Assembly: GCA_963768625.1 (NCBI GenBank)
Contig: CAVYIK010000003.1
Coordinates: 129,274 to 193,273 of the forward strand
Direction: 5' to 3'
Length of the DNA stretch: 64,000 nucleotides
From: an uncultured bacterium
GTDB lineage: Bacteria > Patescibacteriota > Minisyncoccia > UBA6257 > 2-01-FULL-56-20
The notes under the pieces are model-generated. The model searched no databases, was not told where the DNA came from, and saw only the letters and a list, made by a program, of their open reading frames with translations. Positions 6,839-60,469 of the stretch are shown piece by piece (position 1 is the first letter of the stretch; each line of letters starts with the position of its first letter). Made by a program: the position numbers and the translations under genes.

Positions 6839-6886
6839 ACTGACCCTAATATACCCCAAACCTGTAGCTTCTTCAAATTTCTCTTG

Positions 6887-6957
6887 AGCCGGAGAGAGGA
6901 GTCGAACCTCCGTCATCGCTTTACAAAAGCGTTGCTCTGCCGTTGAGCTACTCCGGC
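6887..6957 (-). tRNA. tRNA-Thr (anticodon UGU)
   Basis: Acceptor GCCGGAG/CTCCGGC; D-stem GCTC/GAGC; anticodon loop TTTGTAA; T-loop TTCGACT. Confidence 0.8.
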
Positions 6958-7580
6958 GTTATTCCCAGAAAACTATCCTTGTATTCATCTATCCATCCGA
7001 GTATTAATTTCAATAATTTTTTATCAGCATACTTTAGGCCAATAGTTCCATATTGGGACTTATTTTTATATGTGCCCTGCTTACCTATATGGACATAACT
7101 AGGATAAAAATTTTCCCTACCAATCTTTGTTGTTTTTGCCCAAAATTCTTCAAGAAAGTCCTTGTCCTGATCGGGGTACATGTGGATCATAAGTTTAATC
7201 CTTTTTTCATCAATCCCGCAAATTCCTCTCAGAAATAACAGGAATAATCTTATCATCTCGGGGTTGCTATTCGAAAATCCCACAGAACCACCAGTCTTGG
7301 ATCCCTCGCCCCAATATAGCATTATCCCGGCGATTTTCAAATCGCTATCCCGAGGCGATAAATCCTGTTTTAATAGAAATGGTTGTTTTTTAAATTTAGT
7401 AACATTAAGGCTCGTAATTGCCTCACTGATGGAACGCTTAACGATTTTATTTTTCTCCAAAATACACCTCACCTTCCAAAATGGAATTCCAATGTTTTGA
7501 CTAATTTGAGCTACGGAAAGTCTATCTTCGAGATACATTTTAATAATCGTTCTATCTCCGATAGTTTTCATATACTTCAT
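6948..7580 (-). CDS. hypothetical HTH-containing protein in an AT-rich island (possibly homing-endonuclease-like)
   Basis: 210-aa Lys-rich ORF in a markedly AT-rich stretch (6958..7700). N-terminal HTH LSVAQISQNIGIPFWKV. Its 3' end overlaps the 5' end of tRNA-Thr(UGU) by 10 nt. Confidence 0.4.
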   Translation of the reverse strand: MKYMKTIGDRTIIKMYLEDRLSVAQISQNIGIPFWKVRCILEKNKIVKRSISEAITSLNVTKFKKQPFLLKQDLSPRDSDLKIAGIMLYWGEGSKTGGSVGFSNSNPEMIRLFLLFLRGICGIDEKRIKLMIHMYPDQDKDFLEEFWAKTTKIGRENFYPSYVHIGKQGTYKNKSQYGTIGLKYADKKLLKLILGWIDEYKDSFLGITPE

Positions 7581-25185: not shown

Positions 25186-25835
25186 GGTTATATCTTTGTA
25201 ATGTTTCGCTATGGTCGCGACCGCTTCTTTCTCCATGAAAAGATTCTTGTGGTTCAAAACGTCGAAAACATTGAGCGACGCGGCATCGATTGCCTTCGCT
25301 TTCTCCAGATTGGACGAGGCGCGGAACAGGTTCTTGTTCGCGTGGTCGCCCACGAGAAGCACGTCGTACCGCTTCGCGTTCTTCTTCATGTTCAAAATGG
25401 CGTTCAGGCGTCGAAGCCAAGACCTTCGTCTTCGGCGCTTCGATGGCGAACGTATCAAAAACCTTCACCTCGCCGTCCTTCGCTTTCCGCGAAAGCACCG
25501 AAAAGAGCGCCGCGCGCTTCATCTTTTTGTTCACTTTCTGCGAATAATCGCGCTCGTTGCGGGGACCATGCGATTTTCCGCCGCCTACCCAGAGCGGCGA
25601 CCGGATGGAGCCGTGCCGGGCGCGGCCCGTCCCCTTCTGGCGCCACGGTTTCTTGCCGCCGCCGCGCACTTCGCCGCGTCCCTTCGCGTGCGCCCACGGG
25701 ATCGCGTGCATTCGCGCGCTGGGCGTTCAGAACCTGCTTCACGAGGATAGGGTTCCACTTCGCGCCGAAAACGCCTTCGGGCAATTCAAGCGTTCCCACT
25801 TTTTCGTTCTTCAAATTGTAGACGTCGGCGTTCAT
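25186..25835 (-). CDS. rplD: 50S ribosomal protein L4, frameshifted
   Basis: [23 protein letters not shown]; [25 protein letters not shown]; [14 protein letters not shown] spread over three frames. Confidence 0.8.
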
Positions 25836-25837
25836 GA

Positions 25838-26397
25838 TTATTTCCTGATCTCGATCAGCCCGCCGCGCGCGCCCGGCACCGCACCGCGGAGGAATATCAA
25901 ATTTTTCTCTTTATCAATATCGGCGACAACCAAGTTCTTCACCGTCACGCGATCCGTACCCATATGGCCCGCCATGCGGCGCCCTGTGACGACGCGCTGG
26001 AATGCCGTGCGAGCCGATGGAACCCGGCGCGCGATGACGGTTCTTCTGCCCGTGCGTCTTCGGTCCGCCGGCAAAACCATGCCGCTTCACCGTACCCTGG
26101 AAACCGCGGCCCTTCGTCACGCCGCTCACGCGGACCTTTTCTCCCGCCTTGAACGACTCAACGGTCGACCGCATCGCCCACATTGAACTTCGCGGCCTCC
26201 ACCGGATTCGCCGGCCGATTCCGGAATTCGCGCTTTTTCCTGCCAAGCGAAACCTGGACGGCCTCATAGCCGTCCCGTTCCTTAGTGCGCACGATCGCCA
26301 CCTTGTTCGGTTCCGCCAAAACCACCGTGACGGGAACCACCTTCCCCTCCTTCCAGATCTGCGTCATTTTCAGTTTTTTGCCGAGAATGAACGACAT
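25838..26397 (-). CDS. rplC: 50S ribosomal protein L3, two frameshifts
   Basis: [25 protein letters not shown]; [25 protein letters not shown]; [15 protein letters not shown]. Confidence 0.8.
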
Positions 26398-26419
26398 AAA
26401 AAATCCGGTTTTCGCCGGA
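26398..26419 (-). promoter_or_regulatory. terminator-like hairpin plus U6 abutting the rplC start codon (candidate attenuator)
   Basis: Minus strand reads UCCGG-CGAAAA-CCGGA followed by UUUUUU then AUG. It lies about 130 nt downstream of a sigma70-like promoter. Confidence 0.45.
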
Positions 26420-26539
26420 AGTCCATGCCAACGCCTGCCCGAACCCGCCCTAAGCGGGATCAGTGCCTAAAGAAAACGAAATTCGTCTTCCAGAGCGCGT
26501 AAATATTGGCATATAACTTCCGAGGAAACCTTGGTTGAA

Positions 26540-26567
26540 AGTATAGCAGAACAGCCAAAAGTGTCAA
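26540..26567 (-). promoter_or_regulatory. sigma70-like promoter for rplC and downstream r-protein genes
   Basis: Minus strand TTGACA, 16-nt spacer, TATACT. Confidence 0.5.
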
Positions 26568-26640
26568 TCTGGAGGCGGAAAAGAAAGAGCGGCTCGCTTG
26601 GGGCGGGCCGCTGTTAGTGAAAACCGATCGAAATTGCACA

Positions 26641-27051
26641 TTATCTGCGCAGCTTTATCGGCACAAGTTCACTGAGGCGCGAGAGCATCTTGGCTACAGC
26701 GGGAAAAACCGGATCATCCGCTGATACTCCGCGCGGGAACGATGAGACTTGGATCCCTTGTCGGTTTTCCCGGCCGTTGCTCGTGATACTGATTACTTCG
26801 CCTAAATAAGGAGAATAAATCGTTAACACTCCGGGTTCCGCGGGACTGTCGTGAGCTTTGAATGTAATGCATCCTCCCTCCAACGAAGCAGAATGCAACT
26901 TGCATCCGGGATAGCACTCGGTAGTTTTTGCTTCTCCCTTCTTGAATTCGTCGAGTAAAGTTTGCAGCACCGCTCTTGGTTCCATGTGGCCCTCCCTCTG
27001 TCTGCCTGCGATCATAATCTTTGATGAGTGAGATTTCAAGCCCCTCCGCAC
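26641..27051 (-). CDS. hypothetical protein
   Basis: 136-aa ORF in the lower-GC insertion between rpsJ and rplC; no motif recognised. Confidence 0.4.
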   Translation of the reverse strand: MRRGLKSHSSKIMIAGRQREGHMEPRAVLQTLLDEFKKGEAKTTECYPGCKLHSASLEGGCITFKAHDSPAEPGVLTIYSPYLGEVISITSNGRENRQGIQVSSFPRGVSADDPVFPAVAKMLSRLSELVPIKLRR

Positions 27052-27639
27052 TCAGACCTTATCCTTCAATGCTATGCCGTCCATCTTGATAATGGAAAAG
27101 TGTTCGCCTTTTCTCTCGAGCTCTGCAAAGCCACAGTTTTCAATTTGCACATCACCCAATTTTATGACCTCCCTAAAGATGAACGATATGGGACCGCCGT
27201 GAGATAAAACGCCGATCGTCTTATAAGGCAAACTGGTTATTTTATCCAAGGCTTTCCTGACCCGCTCCCCAAAACGCTCGTAGTCTTCGCTCTCCGGCAC
27301 GGAATGGCGGCGCTGTTTCAGCGCTTCCACATGTTCGGGATATCTTTCCTTCGCGTTCGTCTTCACCATGCCCGTTAAAATACCGTACATATTCCGCTCG
27401 CGGATATCATGAACAACATCGATTTTGCAACCTATTTTTTCAGCAACGATTCTTGCCGTTTCCTGAGCACGAATCCTCGGACTGCAAAAGATGACTTCAA
27501 TACCTGAACCTACAAGCTTTTCAGCAAGTTTCTTTGATTGTTCCTTGCCTTCATCGGTAAGATGGTCGTCATAATCGCCGCCATAGCGATCCTCCACGTC
27601 CCCTGTTGTTTTGCCGTGACGGATGAGATAGATTTTCAT
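27052..27639 (-). CDS. histidine phosphatase family protein (phosphoglycerate mutase-like)
   Basis: N-terminal LIRHGKT (RHG catalytic motif) and a C-terminal LSHGG-like motif. Confidence 0.7.
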   Translation of the reverse strand: MKIYLIRHGKTTGDVEDRYGGDYDDHLTDEGKEQSKKLAEKLVGSGIEVIFCSPRIRAQETARIVAEKIGCKIDVVHDIRERNMYGILTGMVKTNAKERYPEHVEALKQRRHSVPESEDYERFGERVRKALDKITSLPYKTIGVLSHGGPISFIFREVIKLGDVQIENCGFAELERKGEHFSIIKMDGIALKDKV

Positions 27640-28232
27640 GACTTCGTTTCCATGTCCTTCTTCCTTTCCGCCGCAAGAGAATAAAACAGTTCTTTAGTAG
27701 AAGGCGAGCACAGCGGACGGCGCACAAGTTTTTCGTCATTTATCCAAAAATCATAGCTTTGCTCTGGCGTCATGCCCATCGATCTCGCAGCCATCTCAAA
27801 AGCATACCAGCTTGTCTGCGGCCAGATAAAATCCAAGTCGTTGAAAAGCGCCATCTCTTTGCATTCCTTGAATGGAGAATCGTCATTAAGCACCCAATTA
27901 TCGTGCACGCCAATATAATGCACGATCTTTTTTGTAATCTCCGAGTCATAATCCACTTCTTTAAGTATTTTTTCTGCAATCCTTGCGCCCTCACGCATAT
28001 GCACGATTTTCGTCTCTTTGCTCTTTACGTTTGGGTTCTTTTCGTCTACTGCGGAATAGCCAATATCGTGCAAGATAACGATCGGCAAAAGAAGCCTTTT
28101 GTTAAAACCTTCCTTATCTGCGATCTTCTCCGCTTCTCCCATCATCCACTCAATATGAGGTACGTCATATAACCTGCCTTGGAGATAATAAGGTTTTGCT
28201 AACTCCCAAATCTTTAGATATATGGAATCCAT
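27636..28232 (-). CDS. HD domain phosphohydrolase
   Basis: ILHDIGY contains the HD dyad; further His/Asp ligands downstream. The 217-aa ORF is trimmed to the internal Met. AT-rich. Confidence 0.65.
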   Translation of the reverse strand: MDSIYLKIWELAKPYYLQGRLYDVPHIEWMMGEAEKIADKEGFNKRLLLPIVILHDIGYSAVDEKNPNVKSKETKIVHMREGARIAEKILKEVDYDSEITKKIVHYIGVHDNWVLNDDSPFKECKEMALFNDLDFIWPQTSWYAFEMAARSMGMTPEQSYDFWINDEKLVRRPLCSPSTKELFYSLAAERKKDMETKS

Positions 28233-28307
28233 ATTTTTGATAATAGCACCTTTCTTTGACCCACTGCGGGCCAACAAAAAACCGCCCAAGCGGGCGGTTT
28301 TTTGTAC

Positions 28308-28637
28308 TTAGACCATCTTCACTTCCACGTCCACTCCTGCCGGAAGATTCAGATTGCTCAATGATTCTACGATCTTCTGGCTCGGGTTCATGATTTCCAC
28401 AAGGCGCTTGTGAACCCGGAGCTCGAACTGTTCGCGCGAGTCCTTGTGGACAAACGTCGAGCGGTTCACCGTGTAGTGCTTGATCTCCGTCGGCAACGGA
28501 ATCGGGCCCACCACTTTCGCGTCGTTCCGTTCGGCCGCCTCGATGATCTGGCGCGCCGAATTGTCGATCAGTTTGTGGTCGTAGGACTTGATCCGGAGGC
28601 GGATCTTCTGCGGCGTGTCCGATTCCTTTTTTGCCAT
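28308..28637 (-). CDS. rpsJ: 30S ribosomal protein S10
   Basis: 109 aa; [20 protein letters not shown]... Confidence 0.9.
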
Positions 28638-28639
28638 TG

Positions 28640-29839
28640 TTATTTGGTGATCTTCGTCACCGCGCCAGCGCCCACTGTCTTGCCTCCCTCGCGGATGGCA
28701 AAGCGCTGTTTCTCTTCAAGCGCAACGGGCGAGATCAATTTGACGCTCAACTTCACCGTGTCGCCCGGCATTACCATTTCCATGCCCTGAGGCAAGGTCA
28801 CTTCGCCGGTCACATCGGTCGTCCTGATGTAGAACTGCGGTTTGTATCCGGCGAAGAACGGCGAGTGGCGTCCGCCTTCCTCCTTCGAAAGCACATAGAC
28901 CTCTGCTTCGAATTCGGTGTGCGGCGTTACGGTCCCCGGCTTCGCGATCACCTGGCCGCGCTCCACGTCTTCTTTCTTCAAGCCCCGGAGCAAGGCGCCG
29001 ATGTTGTCGCCGGCCATGCCTTCGTCCAAAAGCTTGTTGAACATTTCAATGCCCGTAATGACGGTTTTCGCCGTCGGTTTCAAACCGACGATCTCCACTT
29101 CTTCGTTCACTTTTACTTTTCCACGCTCCACGCGGCCAGTCACAACCGTGCCGCGGCCTTCAATCGAGAAGATGTCTTCGATCGGCATAAGGAACGGCTT
29201 GTCGATGTCGCGCACCGGGTCCGGAATGTAGTCATCCAGAGCCTTTACGAGGTCCAGGATCGGCTTCGCCTCCGGGCTGTCCGCCGAAGCGGCGCTCAAC
29301 GCCTTCAAGGCCGAACCGCGGATGACAGGCGTATTGTCGCCATCGTAGTGGTACTTCTTCAGAAGCTCGCGCACCTCGGATTCAACGAGGTCAATGAGCT
29401 CCGGGTCGTCCACCTGGTCGCACTTATTGAGGAACACGACGATCTTCGGCACGCCAACCTGGTACGCAAGCAAGATGTGCTCCCGCGTCTGCGGCATCGG
29501 GCCGTCGGTCGCGGCAACCACGAGAATCGCACCGTCCATCTGGGCGGCGCCCGTGATCATGTTCTTGATGTAGTCCGCGTGTCCCGGCGCGTCAATGTGC
29601 GCGTAGTGGCGCTTCTCCGACTCGTACTCCGAGTGGTGCAGGGCGATCGTAATACCGCGCGCTTTCTCTTCCGGCGCGTTGTCGATCTGGTCAACACCCT
29701 CTTCTTTCTTTGCGAGACCCTTTTTGAACAAGATGTGTGTGATCGCGGCGGTCAAGGTCGTCTTTCCGTGGTCAACGTGCCCGATCGTGCCGACGTTCAC
29801 GTGCGGCTTCGCTCGGTTAAATTTTTCTTTTTCTGCCAT
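28640..29839 (-). CDS. tuf: elongation factor Tu
   Basis: 399 aa, intact; [26 protein letters not shown]. Confidence 0.95.
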
Positions 29840-29974
29840 GGTGTTTTAGATTATTTTTTAATTTTTTTAAAGCGGGCTTGCTAGTTCCCGCAACTCACTT
29901 TTCCCTCTCCCTCCCAAAGGACATTAGCCAATCGACCTAAAAAGGATCCCCCGGGTAAGGATGGTACGAAGGTT

Positions 29975-30004
29975 AGTGTAAGCCAAATCCGGGCCTTTTG
30001 TCAA
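29975..30004 (-). promoter_or_regulatory. sigma70-like promoter upstream of tuf
   Basis: Minus strand TTGACA, 18-nt spacer, TACACT, about 140 nt upstream of the tuf ATG. A perfect DnaA-box 9-mer TGTGGATAA lies at 30026..30034. Confidence 0.4.
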
Positions 30005-30076
30005 ATCGGGGCCCCTGTGGATTCTGTGGATAAAATCAGGGGGCGCTTTTAAGATTAAATTTTCATTAAATAATGC

Positions 30077-30104
30077 TTGACCTGCTCGGCTCTCTTGGTA
30101 AAAT
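30077..30104 (+). promoter_or_regulatory. sigma70-like promoter on plus strand (TTGACC, 16-nt spacer, TAAAAT)
   Basis: Near-consensus -35 and -10. No plus-strand ORF follows; an intrinsic terminator lies about 30 nt downstream of the predicted TSS. Confidence 0.45.
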
Positions 30105-30132
30105 GTATGTATCTTTGGGATTACCCACTCAC

Positions 30133-30159
30133 CCCGCCTTCGAGGCGGGAGTATTTTTT
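30133..30159 (+). terminator. intrinsic terminator: CCCGCC-UUCGA-GGCGGG followed by U-rich tract
   Basis: GC stem followed by TATTTTTTATT on the plus strand. Its 3' U-tract abuts the stop codon of minus-strand gene 30158..30556. Confidence 0.5.
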
Positions 30160-30556
30160 ATTGGCAATAAAAATTTAGGAAGGCGGCCTTAATAAGGTCA
30201 ATATTAGCGTCCGTTAACATTCCGATCTTGCTTCTCAGGCGGCTTCTGTCCAAGCTCCTTACCTGATTAAGAATGGCTCTGCCTTCCCTACCGCCATAGC
30301 GTATCGGCACATACCAGCTTCCTTCTTTTTGTCGAGTGGTAAGCGGTATAGCCAAAAATCCATCGGCATTGAATCTTTTGAATATCAGAACTGGGCGGCT
30401 AAAATTATGATCCTTTCCAAAAATCTCCACGCCAACGTTCACCCCTATGCTGCACCACCAAATTTCCCCCTCTTTAAAAAGGACTGGCTCTCTCTGATTT
30501 CTAAGCAAAATCTGTGTCTTACACCAATCCAAAAGGGCGAAGATATAATCAATCAT
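30158..30556 (-). CDS. type II toxin-antitoxin toxin, MazF/PemK-like (putative)
   Basis: 132-aa ORF whose pattern GEIWW...RPVLIF...AIPLTT...NQVRSLDRSRL...IG aligns with the MazF/Kid fold motifs. AT-rich accessory context. No convincing antitoxin ORF upstream. Confidence 0.45.
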   Translation of the reverse strand: MIDYIFALLDWCKTQILLRNQREPVLFKEGEIWWCSIGVNVGVEIFGKDHNFSRPVLIFKRFNADGFLAIPLTTRQKEGSWYVPIRYGGREGRAILNQVRSLDRSRLRSKIGMLTDANIDLIKAAFLNFYCQ

Positions 30557-30727
30557 GCAACCACACTACTACTTCACCGATTAAATTTTTCTAAAAACGC
30601 GCACGGGCCTGGACGATTTTCGAACGATAATGAAATTGGCTTCTCTTTTGTCCGAACCGTGAAATATTGATAATTGGATTGGGCCATGATATAACACGCT
30701 CAGTAAGCATAGGAAAGAGAGGAAGCG

Positions 30728-31036
30728 ATGGAACTGCTGAAATCTTGGGGAGCAACTTGGACCCCTGCTTTACATTACGCTATTGACTTCAGTTGCCGGT
30801 GCGGCTTCGAGCTGCCATTCAAACCCGAAAATCGCATACCGTACCTAGTGGGATTTTCTATGGAAGGGCCGCCCAGCAATAGAATATGCACTGGTGATGT
30901 TGTTGGTGTGCAGATTTTCCAGTGCCCTCAATGTTTCGAGATGTTCTGGTTTCATATGGGGAATCTCGCTGCGGCGTTCTATGCAATCAACGCACCACAA
31001 TGGCCGAAATGGTCCACTATGCCCCGCGACAGATAA
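30728..31036 (+). CDS. hypothetical Cys-rich (zinc-ribbon-like) protein
   Basis: 102-aa ORF with CRCG...CPQC. Flanked by 25-nt direct repeats GCACrGGCCTGGACGATyTTCGAAC at 30601 and 31076. Confidence 0.35.
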   Translation: MELLKSWGATWTPALHYAIDFSCRCGFELPFKPENRIPYLVGFSMEGPPSNRICTGDVVGVQIFQCPQCFEMFWFHMGNLAAAFYAINAPQWPKWSTMPRDR

Positions 31037-31145
31037 GGCCCCACGCTTTGCTGTTCGCGGGGTCTTTTCTTTTGTGCACAGGCCTGGACGATCTTCGAAC
31101 TGCTTTATTATCTTATACGGCGAATAAGTTTTATCGTACGCGTAC

Positions 31146-31439
31146 TTGACGTATATATTAATGAAAGTTATACTATGCCCAGCGTCTGCTAGAGGTTTTA
31201 CCTCCAAAGGAGAGACTGTCGTGCTAAAGAAGCTCAAGAATCGGTTTTGGCGCATCCCTATGATCTACGTCATTTCCGCGATGATCGCTTTCTCGGGGGT
31301 TGCCGCCGATCATCGGTGGTATAGCCTGGTTGTTATCTTCGGTCTTATGTCTCTTGTCGTTACGATCGCGACAGTAACTGATGGGTTCGATCAGCTGAAC
31401 ACCGGTTGTGGGTCCGCATTTATCAAGAAAGGAGGTTGA
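31146..31439 (+). CDS. hypothetical small membrane protein
   Basis: 97-aa ORF with two hydrophobic segments, followed by an intrinsic terminator. Confidence 0.4.
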
Positions 31440-33747
31440 TCGAGCGAGGGAAAACATTTCCGGAACATCGAAAGATGTTCCTTTTTTGTGCGCAGGAAAG
31501 GATTCGAACTGAAATTTGAGAATGTGGCTTCGCGCATAAACTATCCTTGAGGGGCATCTCGGAGCCGCGAAGGCGGCGAGAGCGAGGTGCGCTCCGAGCA
31601 CGGAGCGACACCGTCCCCGAAAGGATGGTTTGTGCGCGAAGCCTATCTCTTTTTCCTTCGATGATCAGCTGCGCCACGTTGTTCGGCGTCGGCTCATAGT
31701 GATCAAATTCCATCGTGAAGCTTCCGCGGCCCTGGGACATGGAGCGGAGCTCGGTCGCGTAGCCGAACATTTCAGACAAGGGCACTTTCGCGTCGATGAC
31801 TTTCAACCCCGGCCGGTCGCCAAGCGATTCTATGCGGCCGCGCTTTGAGTTCAATTGGCCCGTCACCTCGCCCAAAAAGTCCGGCGGGACAAGCACCTGC
31901 AATTTCATGATCGGCTCCAAGATCACCGGCTTTGCGCGCTTCGCGGCTTCCTGAAACGCAAGCGATCCCGCCATCTTGAACGCCATTTCCGAAGAGTCCA
32001 CTTCGTGGAAAGAACCGTCAAAAAGCGTCACCTCCACGTCCGTCACCGGATAGTGGGCGAGAATGCCGCGCGTGAGCGCCTCCTCCACGCCTTTTTCGGT
32101 AGGATTGATGAACTCCTTCGGGACCGTGCCGCCCTTGATCTCATCAAGGAACACGAAGCCCTGGCCGCGCTCGAGCGGGCGGATCTTGAGCCATACGTGG
32201 CCGTACTGGCCGCGGCCACCGGACTGTTTGATATATTTCCCTTCCGCTTCCGCTTCACCCATGATCGTTTCCTTGTATGCCACCTGCGGCCGCCCGACGT
32301 TCGCCGCCACGCCGAACTCCCGCTTCATGCGGTCCACGATAATCTCCAAGTGCAGTTCGCCCATACCGGAAATGATGGTCTCGCCCGTGTCCGGATCCCC
32401 CGCCACGCGGAAGGTCGGATCCTCTTCGGCCAGGCGGTGCAACGCCGTGCCCATTTTTTCCTGGTCAGCTTTTGTTTTCGGCTCAATGCGGATGCCAATG
32501 ACGGGCTCGGGGAACGTAATTTTTTCCAAAACGATCGGCGAATCCGGATCGCAAAGCGTGTCCCCCGTCGTCGTATTCTTCAGGCCCACGATCGCCGCGA
32601 TCTCACCCGCATATACCTCCTCCACCTCTTCGCGGTCGTTTGCGTGCATGCGAACCACGCGGCCGATGCGTTCCTGGTTGTTTTTCGATGAATTCAAAAT
32701 GTATGAACCGCGCTTCAAGACGCCGGAATAGTTTCTGAAGAACGCGAGCGTGCCCACGTACGGGTCGGTTGCGATCTTGAACGCGAGCCCGGACAACGGT
32801 TCGCTGTCAATCGGGCGGCGTTCTACCTCCGCGCCTGTCTTGAGGTCGTGTCCTTTTACCGGCGGCAGGTCGGTCGGCGCGGGAAGATAATCCACCACGG
32901 CATCCAGCATGAACTGCACGCCCTTGTTCTTTAGCGCGGACCCGCAGAAGACCGGCACGATCTTGTTCGCGATGACTGCTTTGCGGAGCGTCTTCCTCAA
33001 ATCCTCAATGCCGATATCCTTTCCGTCCAAATACATCGCCATCACCACGTCGTCGTTTTCCGCGATCTTTTCAATAAGTTCATGGCGGTGTTTTTGAACG
33101 TCCGCCTTCATGTCGTCCGGAATGGGCATTTCCACGATCTTTTCGCCGTGCTCTCCTTCAAAGGCAAATGCCTTGTCCAGTAAAAGATCTACGATGCCCC
33201 TGAAATTCCCCTCAAGACCGATCGGCAGCTGCACCGGGAGCGCGTACTGCGTAAGACGGTCTTTGATGGACTGGAAACTATTCACAAAGCTCGCGCCCAT
33301 GCGGTCCAATTTATTGATGAAGCAAATGCGCGGCACATTATATTCGTCCGCATAGCGCCAGTTCGTTTCGGACTGCGGTTCCACACCCGCGACGCCGTCA
33401 AAGACGACGACCGCGCCGTCCAAAACGCGCAGCGACCGCTTCACCTCCACCGTAAAATCGATGTGTCCCGGCGTGTCAATAAGGTTGATCTGATGCTCAA
33501 AATTCTTGTCGTGGTTCCGTTCGGTCGGGATCCAGAACGCGGTCGTCGCTGCCGAAGTGATCGTGATGCCACGCTCGCGCTCCTGCTCCATCCAGTCCAT
33601 CACGGTGTCGCCCGTGTGCACCTCGCCGATCTTGTGCGAAACGCCGGTATAGAAAAGCACCCGCTCGGAGACGGTCGTCTTCCCGGCATCAATGTGCGCA
33701 ATGATACCGATATTGCGCACCTTTTCAATAGGATATTTTCTGGGCAT
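31423..33747 (-). CDS. fusA: elongation factor G; annotated ORF carries a probably artefactual ~75-aa C-terminal extension
   Basis: AHIDAGKTT and all five EF-G domains. The canonical C-terminus ...[11 protein letters not shown] is followed by an Arg/Ser-rich tail. One extra A in the A5 run near 31650..31654 would give ...GKKR-stop. Confidence 0.95.
31462..31487 (+). terminator. intrinsic terminator GGAACAUC-GAAA-GAUGUUCC followed by U6
   Basis: Perfect 8-bp stem with a GAAA loop, then TTTTTTG. Confidence 0.6.
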
Positions 33748-59066: not shown

Positions 59067-59581
59067 AACACCGAGAGGAGGCAGCCCAAGCCGAAAACGA
59101 AAAAGAGACAGGGGAAGCGACCAAAGAACGGAGGGATAAACTGTTTACTGAAAACCGCGAGATCCTCGAGGACCCCATCTTCCAGAAAATCGTTTCTTCC
59201 ATTGAGACGGGCTGGGATGCTTTGAGCGACAAGGACAAAGAAACTATCCTCGATGTCTTTGCCGAACTTCTCACGGCCATCAAGAATTATGATGACAGCT
59301 ATAGAACTCTCAAGGGCGTTCTTAAATACAAACTCTCTGATGAGGCGAGCTCCGAGAGCACAAAGCGCCACCAGGAGCACGAGAGTGAAGCAGATCGCCG
59401 CGAGCATGAGCTGCACGAAGCGTTCCTCGACTCGGTAAATATCCTTTCCCGGAGAATGAAAGAGCTGGGATTGGATAACTCATGGCGGGCCGACGAGGCA
59501 ATTTATCCCATTTCCAATGATCATGAGGCAAATAGGACCAAAGTGAAGCGCTGGATGTTCAGGGTTTTCAGTGAGAGTTAG
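59063..59581 (+). CDS. hypothetical acidic protein
   Basis: 172-aa Glu/Asp/Lys-rich ORF overlapping the rpmB stop by 4 nt. Confidence 0.4.
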   Translation: MKHREEAAQAENEKETGEATKERRDKLFTENREILEDPIFQKIVSSIETGWDALSDKDKETILDVFAELLTAIKNYDDSYRTLKGVLKYKLSDEASSESTKRHQEHESEADRREHELHEAFLDSVNILSRRMKELGLDNSWRADEAIYPISNDHEANRTKVKRWMFRVFSES

Positions 59582-60353
59582 AATGCAGAAGCATAGCTAA
59601 TTTTTCGGACACAAGAACTAAGCGGCCGCTTAGGAATACATCTTCCGGATAGATCTCGATTAGCTGTATATAATGAGCACCGCAAAAGATCCTCTTCTTC
59701 TCTATTGTTGCGTCATACTCGCTTTTAACTCCCGCTAAGCCGAAGAATTCAACGATAATATTCGGCTCAATAAAGAAATCTGCGGTCATTTTTGTCGTGC
59801 CGTAGCGCCAATTTCTCTTGTGCTTGATTTCCTGTCCATGAAGCCAGTTGTCAATAATGGATTCTGTAAACGAATCGCAGGGATGGCCGTCGTCTGACTT
59901 AAATTTATAGGCGAACAAACGAGGATTAACAGCAAATCCGGCTGCGCGAATTGCTGCATTCCAACTTCCGAATTGCCGTTGATATGTTTCATACATATTA
60001 AATTCTCTCTTCAACGGAATCCTGTGATGCTGTCTGTGAAAATCAATTATCTTCTTTAATAATTCCCCTCGGGTGTACGTCTTTCTATAACGAACGAGGC
60101 GAATTCTAGCTAAATCACTGAGCCGCTTGCGCAATGCAGGAGTAAAAACTTTTTTATCTCTCCGTACCTGAATGGCGGCTCTTTGTTCGGGGGTCAACAC
60201 GATATCTTTCGTCCATATATCTGCCGTGCTGATACTGACTCCTAATTGCTTGGCAATCTCCCGATGCGTTTTGCCCTCTTCGCGTAATGTCCGACCTCGC
60301 TTCCGCGTAGACGCAGGATACCGGATTCCATTTCTGTGTTTTGTGTTTTCCAT
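59568..60353 (-). CDS. HTH + Vsr/DUF559-like (PD-(D/E)xK) endonuclease-domain protein, homing-endonuclease-like
   Basis: AT-rich gene. N-terminal HTH GKTHREIAKQLGVSISTADIW; FGSWNAAIRAAGF motif; C-terminal DFFIEPNIIVEFFG...K resembles the Vsr-type nuclease core. Adjacent to tRNA-Pro. Confidence 0.45.
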   Translation of the reverse strand: MENTKHRNGIRYPASTRKRGRTLREEGKTHREIAKQLGVSISTADIWTKDIVLTPEQRAAIQVRRDKKVFTPALRKRLSDLARIRLVRYRKTYTRGELLKKIIDFHRQHHRIPLKREFNMYETYQRQFGSWNAAIRAAGFAVNPRLFAYKFKSDDGHPCDSFTESIIDNWLHGQEIKHKRNWRYGTTKMTADFFIEPNIIVEFFGLAGVKSEYDATIEKKRIFCGAHYIQLIEIYPEDVFLSGRLVLVSEKLAMLLHSNSH

Positions 60354-60384: not shown

Positions 60385-60455
60385 AGATTAAAAGACGGGC
60401 CGTCGTATAATGGTAGTACGCGTGGCTGGGGGTCATGCAGTCCGGGTCCGATTCC
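60385..60455 (+). tRNA. tRNA-Pro (anticodon GGG), tentative
   Basis: Acceptor CGGGCCG/CGGCCCG with the C1-G72 pair and A73 typical of tRNA-Pro; T-arm CCGGG-TCCGATT-CCCGG; anticodon stem CGTGG/TCATG with loop CTGGGGG. The D-arm is irregular. Confidence 0.55.
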
Positions 60456-60469
60456 CGGCGGCCCGACAA

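Follow-up and report, generated by a model that had tools for sequence, protein, structure and literature searches.

The genes for ribosomal proteins S10 and L3, rpsJ and rplC, are separated by 1.9 kb of additional DNA in a 64,000-nucleotide stretch of an uncultured patescibacterial genome (contig CAVYIK010000003.1; the whole stretch is called the window below). This segment (positions 26398-28300) encodes an HD-domain hydrolase, a histidine phosphatase and an orphan protein, and is very probably a lineage-specific accessory cassette gained by a Paceibacteria genome in the spacer that separates two ancestral transcription units. In the arrangement we propose, the tuf-rpsJ unit would end in an intrinsic terminator, rplC would open a separate operon with a consensus sigma-70 promoter and a structured leader, and the cassette would have been placed exactly between the pre-existing terminator and the pre-existing promoter, disturbing neither unit. 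Because neither unit is disturbed, the slot between rpsJ and rplC, and likewise the slot between fusA and tuf, would tolerate and accumulate varied genes across the clade. The cassette would be expressed on its own, possibly as a leaderless HD mRNA from an extended -10 element, or else by weak read-through. Although genuine, the case is a fairly ordinary one, as this boundary often holds extra genes in the lineage, and the variable slots flanking tuf-rpsJ, together with an uncatalogued rplC leader, are worth more than the cassette itself.

The boundary between rpsJ and rplC

A preliminary description of the window had reported a low-GC insertion of three genes (an HD hydrolase, an RHG-motif phosphatase and an unknown protein) inside the S10 operon. 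The three genes are found as described, on the minus strand, which holds every gene of the rpsJ-rplC region among the open reading frames (ORFs) of the window. They were compared with 80 related loci from a scan with one genome per species, all of them metagenome-assembled genomes, with S10 proteins 64-96% identical to that of the window and labels that are mostly Paceibacterota, Parcubacteria-group lineages (Liptonbacteria, Wolfebacteria) and similar Patescibacteria names. An exact-sequence look-up of the S10 and EF-Tu proteins of the window gave no match. Homologues of the HD, phosphatase and orphan genes were found by tblastn in none of the 80 loci, where tuf, rpsJ, rplC and rplD were detected. 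With the three genes all missing from every one of these Paceibacteria loci, the cassette is, as far as the comparison reaches, a lineage-specific gain. The closest relative free of the island (L003, S10 96% identical) has an rpsJ-rplC spacer of 296 nt that consists of terminator, promoter and leader only, and the nearest homologues of the HD protein (72% identity) and the phosphatase (74%) occupy other genomic contexts.

The composition of the cassette is foreign to its host. Its G+C content is 0.470, against a mean of 0.557 (standard deviation 0.030) for 1.9-kb segments of the window (z = -2.9), and just 1.4% of such segments lie lower; its tetranucleotide distance is also high (z = +2.5). 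G+C at third codon positions (GC3) is 0.50-0.52 in the three cassette genes, 0.77 and 0.79 in tuf and rpsJ, and 0.65-0.76 in most long ORFs. The markedly lower GC described earlier is thus borne out by G+C content, GC3 and tetranucleotide profile alike. The opposite pattern, in which the same trio occurs across the whole lineage with host-like composition, was looked for by synteny and composition and was not found, and the segment is better described as an insertion than as an ancestral arrangement.

The upstream unit can be delimited by gene spacing and by a predicted terminator. In the window, the tuf stop codon and the rpsJ start codon are 2 nt apart; in the relatives the median gap is 41 nt, and it is at most 150 nt in 69 of 77, above 400 nt in two and above 1 kb in one. 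Right behind rpsJ stands a strong terminator, a feature absent from the preliminary description, with a perfect 14-bp stem (ACAAAAAACCGCCC / GGGCGGTTTTTTGT), a 4-nt loop, an A-run before it and a T-run (T6) after it; it is potentially bidirectional. Its predicted folding free energy (dG) is -22.6 kcal/mol (z -3.35), and none of 200 shuffled sequences was equally stable. A G+C-rich hairpin and a U-run directly downstream of the stop codon would together form an intrinsic terminator. With a simple hairpin-plus-T-run detector, terminator-like hairpins were found within 100 nt of the rpsJ stop codon in 47 of 81 sequences, as compared with 15 of 400 random 100-nt windows from the same loci. Because rpsJ is tightly linked to tuf and is followed by a terminator-like hairpin, the rpsJ-rplC junction is, on these predictions, an ancestral operon boundary, and rpsJ is the last gene of a tuf-rpsJ unit in this clade rather than the first gene of the S10 operon. 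The earlier placement of the cassette inside that operon is not sustained. The accompanying suggestion that its position may ensure co-expression with ribosomal proteins is also contradicted, as the strong terminator upstream of the cassette argues against high co-expression with rpsJ, and a weaker hairpin with a T-rich tail follows the cassette. This second hairpin also matches the rpsJ terminator at 79% complementarity, which is too weak to interpret. An extended -10-like motif (TGCTATTAT) ends 7 nt before the ATG of the HD gene, which is preceded by no Shine-Dalgarno sequence, and this hints at a leaderless HD mRNA transcribed from the extended -10 element.

The downstream unit appears equally old. 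All nine of the closest genomes have a promoter of the form TTGACA-N16-18-TATA(C/A)T 170-275 nt upstream of rplC, TG-extended in most (the -10 box of L004 is TAGACT), and have it whether the spacer measures 296 or 3904 nt. The promoter and leader of the window (26567-26398) align to positions 6400-6570 of L003, with an 87-nt core that is 86% identical, which is more than the adjacent ribosomal genes show (77% at the DNA level). Terminator, promoter and leader all occur in L003 and in eight other close relatives, as expected of an insertion between operons. Because they are conserved in island-free relatives, whatever the cargo, the rplC promoter and leader are ancestral and predate the insertion. 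The preliminary description was right that rplC has a sigma70-like promoter and a leader of its own; that it acquired them does not hold, the same elements being present in the nine closest relatives, including L003. Coordinates are collected in Table 1.

Table 1. Features of the rpsJ-rplC region in the window, followed by corresponding leaders and gene pairs in related loci (coordinates of the respective locus).
Feature	Position	Strand	Description
fusA	33747 to ~31640	-	followed by a 1.6-kb low-GC stretch before tuf
tuf (EF-Tu)	28640-29839	-	399 aa, intact
rpsJ (S10)	28308-28637	-	109 aa, intact; Pfam Ribosomal_S10 E 9.4e-35
Intrinsic terminator (predicted)	28274-28305	-	immediately 3' of rpsJ
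HD-domain gene	27636-28232	-	ATG 28232; 198 aa; PF01966
His_Phos_1 phosphatase gene	27052-27639	-	195 aa; PF00300 E 8.1e-39
Orphan ORF	26641-26985	-	114 aa from ATG 26985; 136 aa if GTG 27051
Weak terminator-like hairpin	26578-26612	-	GCGGCC..GGCCGC type, then TCTTTCTTTT; closes the cassette
Sigma-70-type promoter (predicted)	26540-26567	-	TTGACA-16-TATACT with TG extension; 11/12 consensus matches
Structured rplC leader (predicted)	26398-26534	-	~140 nt; conserved
rplC (L3)	25838-26397	-	ATG 26397; frame broken in the window
rplC leader, L003	6432-6571		
rplC leader, L004	7025-7161		
rplC leader, L005	6945-7095		
rplC leader, L006	8202-8340		
rplC leader, L007	7267-7404		
rplC leader, L008	9985-10164		
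rplC leader, L011	8123-8263		
rplC leader, L012	7491-7629		
HIT-His_Phos_1 pair, L090-L093	4567-5590		
HIT-His_Phos_1 pair, L095	4567-5582		

The same arrangement is found in a Logan contig (L001, ERR11594402, 3.8 kb) and a JGI contig (L002, 3300010379, 1.9 kb). Both alignments start within rpsJ and run unbroken over both junctions, that of L001 as far as rplW and that of L002 into the rplC leader. The window is identical to L001 from 28451 down to about 26200, after which 81 mismatches and 15 single-base indels accumulate as far as 24596 (97.5% identity between the two). Two single-base insertions, at 26166 and 26009, break rplC in the window; in L001 it is intact (185 aa), as are the genes for L4 and L23. 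Further single-base indels, mostly an extra G or C, lie at 25718, 25703, 25409, 25284, 25192, 25072, 24819, 24804 and 24611. Genes split over several frames in the window include those for L3, L4, L23, L2, S3, L16, secY and a dnaE-like protein, among others, and long ORFs are fragmented from about 8 to 26 kb and intact from 36 kb onward. These indels are probably consensus errors in conserved regions common to co-occurring strains, rather than marks of pseudogenes, and the sequence errors leave the cassette unaffected. At the other end of the region, the fusA ORF extends about 70 codons beyond the conserved C-terminus ...IIEGKR (31423-31650); L003 ends ...AAAAGATAG (stop) where the window reads ...AAAAAGAGATAGG, with the TAG out of frame, so that the overrun reflects either a true extension or a further error in the sequence.

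Variable slots and the rplC leader

rpsJ and rplC had been described as adjacent in essentially all bacteria, and an insertion between them as unusual. Neither statement holds for this lineage, in which 21 of 65 relatives have an rpsJ-rplC spacer of more than 400 nt (median of all 65, 232 nt; above 1 kb in 8), with unrelated cargo. Among relatives with S10 at least 77% identical, the median rises to 781 nt, and 18 of 24 spacers are longer than 400 nt and 8 of 24 longer than 1 kb. The fusA-tuf spacer is similarly open (median 361 nt), exceeding 400 nt in 20 of 43 relatives and 1 kb in 15 of 43.

The cargo at rpsJ-rplC is diverse. Pairs of LiaF-like membrane proteins occur in L006 and L008, for which homology-supported forward-strand ORFs were used, longest-ORF calls in GC-rich spacers including antisense artefacts. 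L008 also carries a SAM methyltransferase and a 359-aa unknown protein in common with L011, the two copies being 62% identical where L3 and L4 are 76-77% identical. A TSCPD protein is found in L020, and in L022 (5700-8353) a diversity-generating retroelement with a bAvd-like protein (E 1.8e-14) and a reverse transcriptase (RVT_1, E 2.2e-25), adjoining a 262-aa ORF without a Pfam match. In L045 a Metallophos_2 phosphoesterase follows rpsJ and the contig ends before rplC. Most other genomes hold ORFs without a Pfam match. Because members of a subclade have a little of this cargo in common, with identities lower than for L3 and L4, the slot holds both inherited and unique genes. In three loci (L044, L047 and L058, two of them labelled Wolfebacteria or simply 'bacterium') no rplC is present in the ~6 kb fetched downstream of rpsJ, and the S10-L3 linkage seems fully broken. 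By eye, ychF, a class II aldolase, L25 and a release factor lie downstream of rpsJ in L044 and L047 (6325-12323), and NUDIX-like and deacetylase-like ORFs in L058 (6328-12326).

Further low-GC features were seen elsewhere in the window, which holds four low-GC islets in addition to the cassette. The fusA-tuf insert (29840-31420; GC ~0.43-0.48) contains a gene for a PemK/MazF-type toxin (30158-30556; Pfam E 2.4e-11) besides unknown ORFs, and a tuf promoter-like site, TTGACA-18-TACACT (30004-29975), lies downstream of it; in L003 a TTGACA-17-TACAAT site directly follows fusA. A gene of very low GC (6948-7580; GC3 0.38; no Pfam match) adjoins tRNA-Thr (6886-6957), and another (59568-60353; GC3 0.45), encoding a helix-turn-helix and a homing-endonuclease-associated repeat (PF18780, E 5.8e-12), adjoins tRNA-Pro (60396-60467).

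The rplC leader has a 5' box (AAGGTTTCCTCGGAAG..ATGCCAA), followed by two hairpins, a CCGG-type terminator-like hairpin (26419-26404) and a T6 run (26403-26398) that abuts the ATG, as the T-run does in L001 too. Nine genomes share the AAGGTTTCCTCGGAAG..ATGCC box, the two hairpins and the CCGG-type hairpin with its T-run. A 3' module (TACTGGATTTCC...GGAACGATCAAGAA) seen in five of seven other relatives is missing from the leaders of the window and L001. The predicted transcript has a minimum free energy of -57.1 kcal/mol (z -5.15), and in a model-based alignment its three helices are 87.7% paired, compared with 42-60% with slid partners. Covariation is 0.358 against a shuffle mean of 0.284, a value reached by none of 500 shuffles. 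This evidence is moderate, the sequences being few and related, and it gives modest support because the leader model is limited to nine close relatives; the remaining covariance-model matches (E 0.05-0.8) are noise. With Rfam, only tRNAs reached the gathering threshold in the window, and nothing credible was found at E<=10 in 26300-26700. When the single sequence is folded, the left arm of the last hairpin is taken up in pairing with the 5' box, which suggests an antiterminator/terminator alternative. A conserved, structured 5' leader that ends in a terminator hairpin and U-run has the predicted architecture of an attenuator-type ribosomal-protein leader, and the rplC leader probably acts as an autoregulatory attenuator of the same type as the L4/S10 leader of E. 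coli. The kind of leader is known and this member is uncatalogued, making it a candidate new ribosomal-protein regulatory RNA.

A broader proposal, possible rather than probable, is that fusA-tuf and rpsJ-rplC are clade-wide landing pads in Paceibacteria, with the conserved flanks serving as homology arms for recombination after DNA uptake and each slot insulated by an ancestral terminator and promoter, and that the rplC leader is a previously undescribed L4- or L3-responsive attenuator with an origin separate from that of the E. coli S10 leader. The cargo of such pads would include genes as different as those for small hydrolases, a MazF toxin and a diversity-generating retroelement.

The cassette proteins

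The start of the HD protein at ATG 28232 is supported by an alignment of 37 homologues; a longer form of 217 aa from TTG 28289 was rejected, as it would start within the rpsJ terminator and the homologues begin at ATG 28232. The protein matches PF01966 with 29.6 bits (cut-off 22) and TIGR00277 (HDIG) with 28.1 bits (cut-off 27.6), and its metal-ligand residues H55, D56, H78, H110, D111, D132 and D134 are invariant in the 37 homologues. It belongs to a family of 106 homologues, stand-alone proteins of ~195-200 aa, whose few named members come from Paceibacterota and DPANN archaea (Nanoarchaeota or Woesearchaeota) at 50-60% identity, which hints at exchange of the family between ultra-small cells of two domains. 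The AlphaFold2 (AF2) model is all-alpha, with 13 helices and a mean predicted local distance difference test (pLDDT) score of 96.3. By sequence, the best match in the Protein Data Bank (PDB) is SE1688 (2qgs, E 1.5e-3); by fold, it is 3djb, with a template modelling (TM) score of 0.62, followed by others including YedJ and PgpH (E 0.07, TM 0.46-0.50), all Foldseek matches having E >0.01. A profile-HMM search to assign the subfamily, as proposed earlier, confirmed the HD superfamily and matched no characterised subfamily: YqeK, HD-GYP/PgpH, YfbR and SpoT/SAH models gave no hit in Pfam (E<=0.01), where only the general HD model matched, or in NCBIfam (E<=0.1), where only HDIG scored above its cut-off. 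The protein reads HDIGYS and has no GYP motif. Its relatives keep diverse company, with 129 Pfam families among the 100 flanking ORFs of 83 loci; NUDIX is commonest (6/100), followed by GNAT, MarR and HIT (2/100).

The phosphatase carries its RHG motif at residues 7-9 (IRHGKT 6-11) and matches PF00300 with 133.7 bits over profile positions 1-190 of 194. It reaches none of the NCBIfam equivalog cut-offs (CobC 90.7 vs 162.9, dPGM_arch 72.5 vs 225, SixA 48.4 vs 74.5, PspA 75.6 vs 350) and matches only an unannotated PHROG family; close homologues are annotated by JGI as 'broad specificity phosphatase PhoE'. Its ATG overlaps the HD stop codon by 4 nt (ATGA), which suggests translational coupling of the two genes. 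Its nearest relatives (69-74% identity) are each preceded, with the same 4-nt overlap, by a gene of the HIT family (Table 1), and in three loci this HIT-His_Phos_1 pair lies ~2 kb downstream of rpsD-rpoA-rplQ-rplM-rpsI, again beside a ribosomal cluster. One further homologue, P0172, is a SET-His_Phos_1 fusion. No homologue of this phosphatase accompanies the HD gene in any of the 83 HD-family loci (tblastn E<=1e-4), and in one of them (L086, Paceibacterota) a His_Phos_1 gene two genes from the HD gene encodes a paralogue that is only 31% identical. Because no HD-family locus has the phosphatase and the relatives of the phosphatase pair with HIT, the HD-phosphatase pair is, on present comparisons, a local mosaic and not a conserved module. 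That the HD protein has replaced HIT isofunctionally (non-orthologous displacement) was considered and set aside as speculation, as the neighbours of the HD family show no consistent partner.

The third protein had been given as 136 aa. The ORF is present, and a product of 114 aa is likelier, its start codon being preceded by a GGGAGGG Shine-Dalgarno sequence and chosen in two other assemblies. It has no match in Pfam, NCBIfam, PADLOC or PHROG. Among 1.84 billion representatives a single credible relative was found (P0229, 127 aa, 31-32% identity, E 4e-4), on a 1.3-kb contig beside rpsT; a match to a 2954-aa adhesin is a repeat artefact. The AF2 model has a helix, a six-stranded sheet and a second helix (pLDDT 83.5), with no significant match in PDB or BFVD (best p32/gC1qR, E 0.02, TM 0.40).

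Alternative explanations and comparison with known systems

Several points weigh against the reading of the segment as a cassette gained between two intact units and against the roles given to its parts. The terminator, promoter and attenuator are predictions from sequence only, and the hairpin that closes the cassette (centroid -15.5 kcal/mol, z -0.97) is no better than shuffled sequences. Each related locus spans only ~6 kb per side, and the three genes could sit elsewhere in those genomes. No ORF for an integrase, transposase or recombinase lies in or next to the cassette, and a search for flanking direct repeats or a target-site duplication gave only chance-size matches. Across 81 sources, the covariance model of the leader recovered only the nine sequences on which it was trained. 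Lastly, the HD family has no characterised member, and the best PDB match, SE1688, is itself of unknown function. That the trio was ancestral at rpsJ-rplC and lost in the relatives would fit the filled slots of most close relatives and the cargo that some genomes share at identities below L3/L4, a pattern of partly vertical descent. It is nevertheless very unlikely in view of the compact spacer of the nearest relative, the absence of any fragment of the HD, phosphatase or orphan gene from the 80 loci, a GC3 some 0.25 below that of host genes, and the foreign contexts of the closest HD and phosphatase homologues. We give as little credence to the idea that the cassette is part of a mobile element or an anti-phage system aimed at conserved housekeeping loci: the toxin gene in the neighbouring fusA-tuf slot and the retroelement of L022 in the very same slot speak for it, and against it stand the missing integrase, transposase or recombinase, the lack of direct repeats beyond chance size, the absence of a PADLOC-DB match for any of the three proteins (E<=0.01) and a PHROG match of the phosphatase to an unannotated family only. 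The nearest tRNA is 6 kb from the cassette. Least probable of all is an assembly artefact in which a low-GC segment of another organism was joined in silico to the ribosomal cluster. The region is error-prone, with the indels and mismatches of 24.6-26.2 kb and many essential genes split over frames, but two independent assemblies from other samples cross both junctions unbroken, with cassettes 100% (L001) and 99.4% (L002) identical to that of the window.

The preliminary description had also proposed the HD and phosphatase proteins as a plausible second-messenger or modified-nucleotide degrading pair, placed inside the S10 operon perhaps for co-expression; the outcome would be a translation-linked module clearing alarmones or dinucleotides. 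The 4-nt overlap of the two genes agrees with this, as do the H..HD..H..HD..D set of dinuclear HD phosphodiesterases in the HD family, its weak fold likeness to the c-di-AMP phosphodiesterase PgpH, and the pairing of the relatives of the phosphatase with HIT, a family that includes dinucleoside-polyphosphate hydrolases. Such a module is unlikely, however, with a strong terminator between rpsJ and the cassette, an ancestral promoter of rplC's own, highly diverse HD neighbours, the pair recurring in none of the 83 HD-family loci, no YqeK, HD-GYP or equivalog match, Foldseek values all above E 0.01, and unrelated cargo at the same site in other genomes. Family membership and neighbours lead us instead, tentatively, to two broad phosphohydrolases acting on phosphorylated small molecules, most plausibly nucleotides, in house-cleaning or salvage rather than in a dedicated signalling pathway; the chances of this being right fall somewhat short of even.

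Some practical consequences follow. S10 and L3 do not form one operon in this lineage of the candidate phyla radiation (CPR), so extra genes between them leave the most conserved operon unbroken, and methods that use 16 syntenic ribosomal proteins on CPR genomes should expect S10-L3 separation (~0.1-4 kb here). The rpsJ-rplC and fusA-tuf spacers are good places to seek recently acquired genes in Paceibacteria, and the uncharacterised HD family may merit attention in connection with how ultra-small cells scavenge nucleotides.

The cassette proteins resemble known enzymes in general features. The HD protein is like the stand-alone HD hydrolases of ~200 aa (SE1688, 2qgs; BT9727_1981, 3djb; YedJ, 3gw7; YpgQ-like proteins) in size, all-alpha HD fold and His/Asp ligands, and unlike them in sequence, with an identity of only 14-20% and no Foldseek match below E 0.01. 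The phosphatase shares the RHG motif and a full-length His_Phos_1 match with the broad-specificity histidine phosphatases (PhoE/CobC/GpmB-like), but scores below all the equivalog cut-offs and has an HD protein in place of the HIT partner of its closest relatives.

The position of the boundary has parallels elsewhere. According to older literature (e.g. work on Spirulina platensis), S10 is reportedly joined to the str/tuf unit in archaea, cyanobacteria and plastids, the large operon starting at rplC. The Paceibacteria loci resemble that order in the tuf-rpsJ linkage and in an rplC-led operon with its own leader, and differ from it in that most loci still have rplC no more than a few kb downstream of rpsJ. 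In Gammaproteobacteria and Bacilli the rpoBC-str-S10-spc-alpha cluster has changed mainly by insertions of a few genes between its operons (77 of 115 events), for example of bfd-bfr or ilv/leu between str and S10 (Brandis 2021, PMC8046335). The cassette is like these insertions in that a few unrelated genes occupy an inter-operon spacer and the flanking units are intact. It is unlike them in that the boundary lies one gene further on, with rpsJ in the upstream tuf unit, and in that the slot is far more variable among close genomes and filled mostly with ORFans and small hydrolases.

Regulatory leaders of this operon are likewise known from distant groups. The E. coli S10 leader acts through L4-stimulated termination (PMC3616713), conserved RNA structures upstream of rplC have been reported in cyanobacteria (PMC12873609), and in Archaeoglobi an L4 leader precedes rplC-rplD-rplW-rplB (PMC7247131). 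Like the E. coli leader, the predicted rplC leader is structured, lies upstream of an operon that encodes L4, and presents hairpins followed by a terminator hairpin and U-run by the first start codon; unlike it, the leader described here precedes rplC and not rpsJ, and the two have no detectable homology in sequence or structure.

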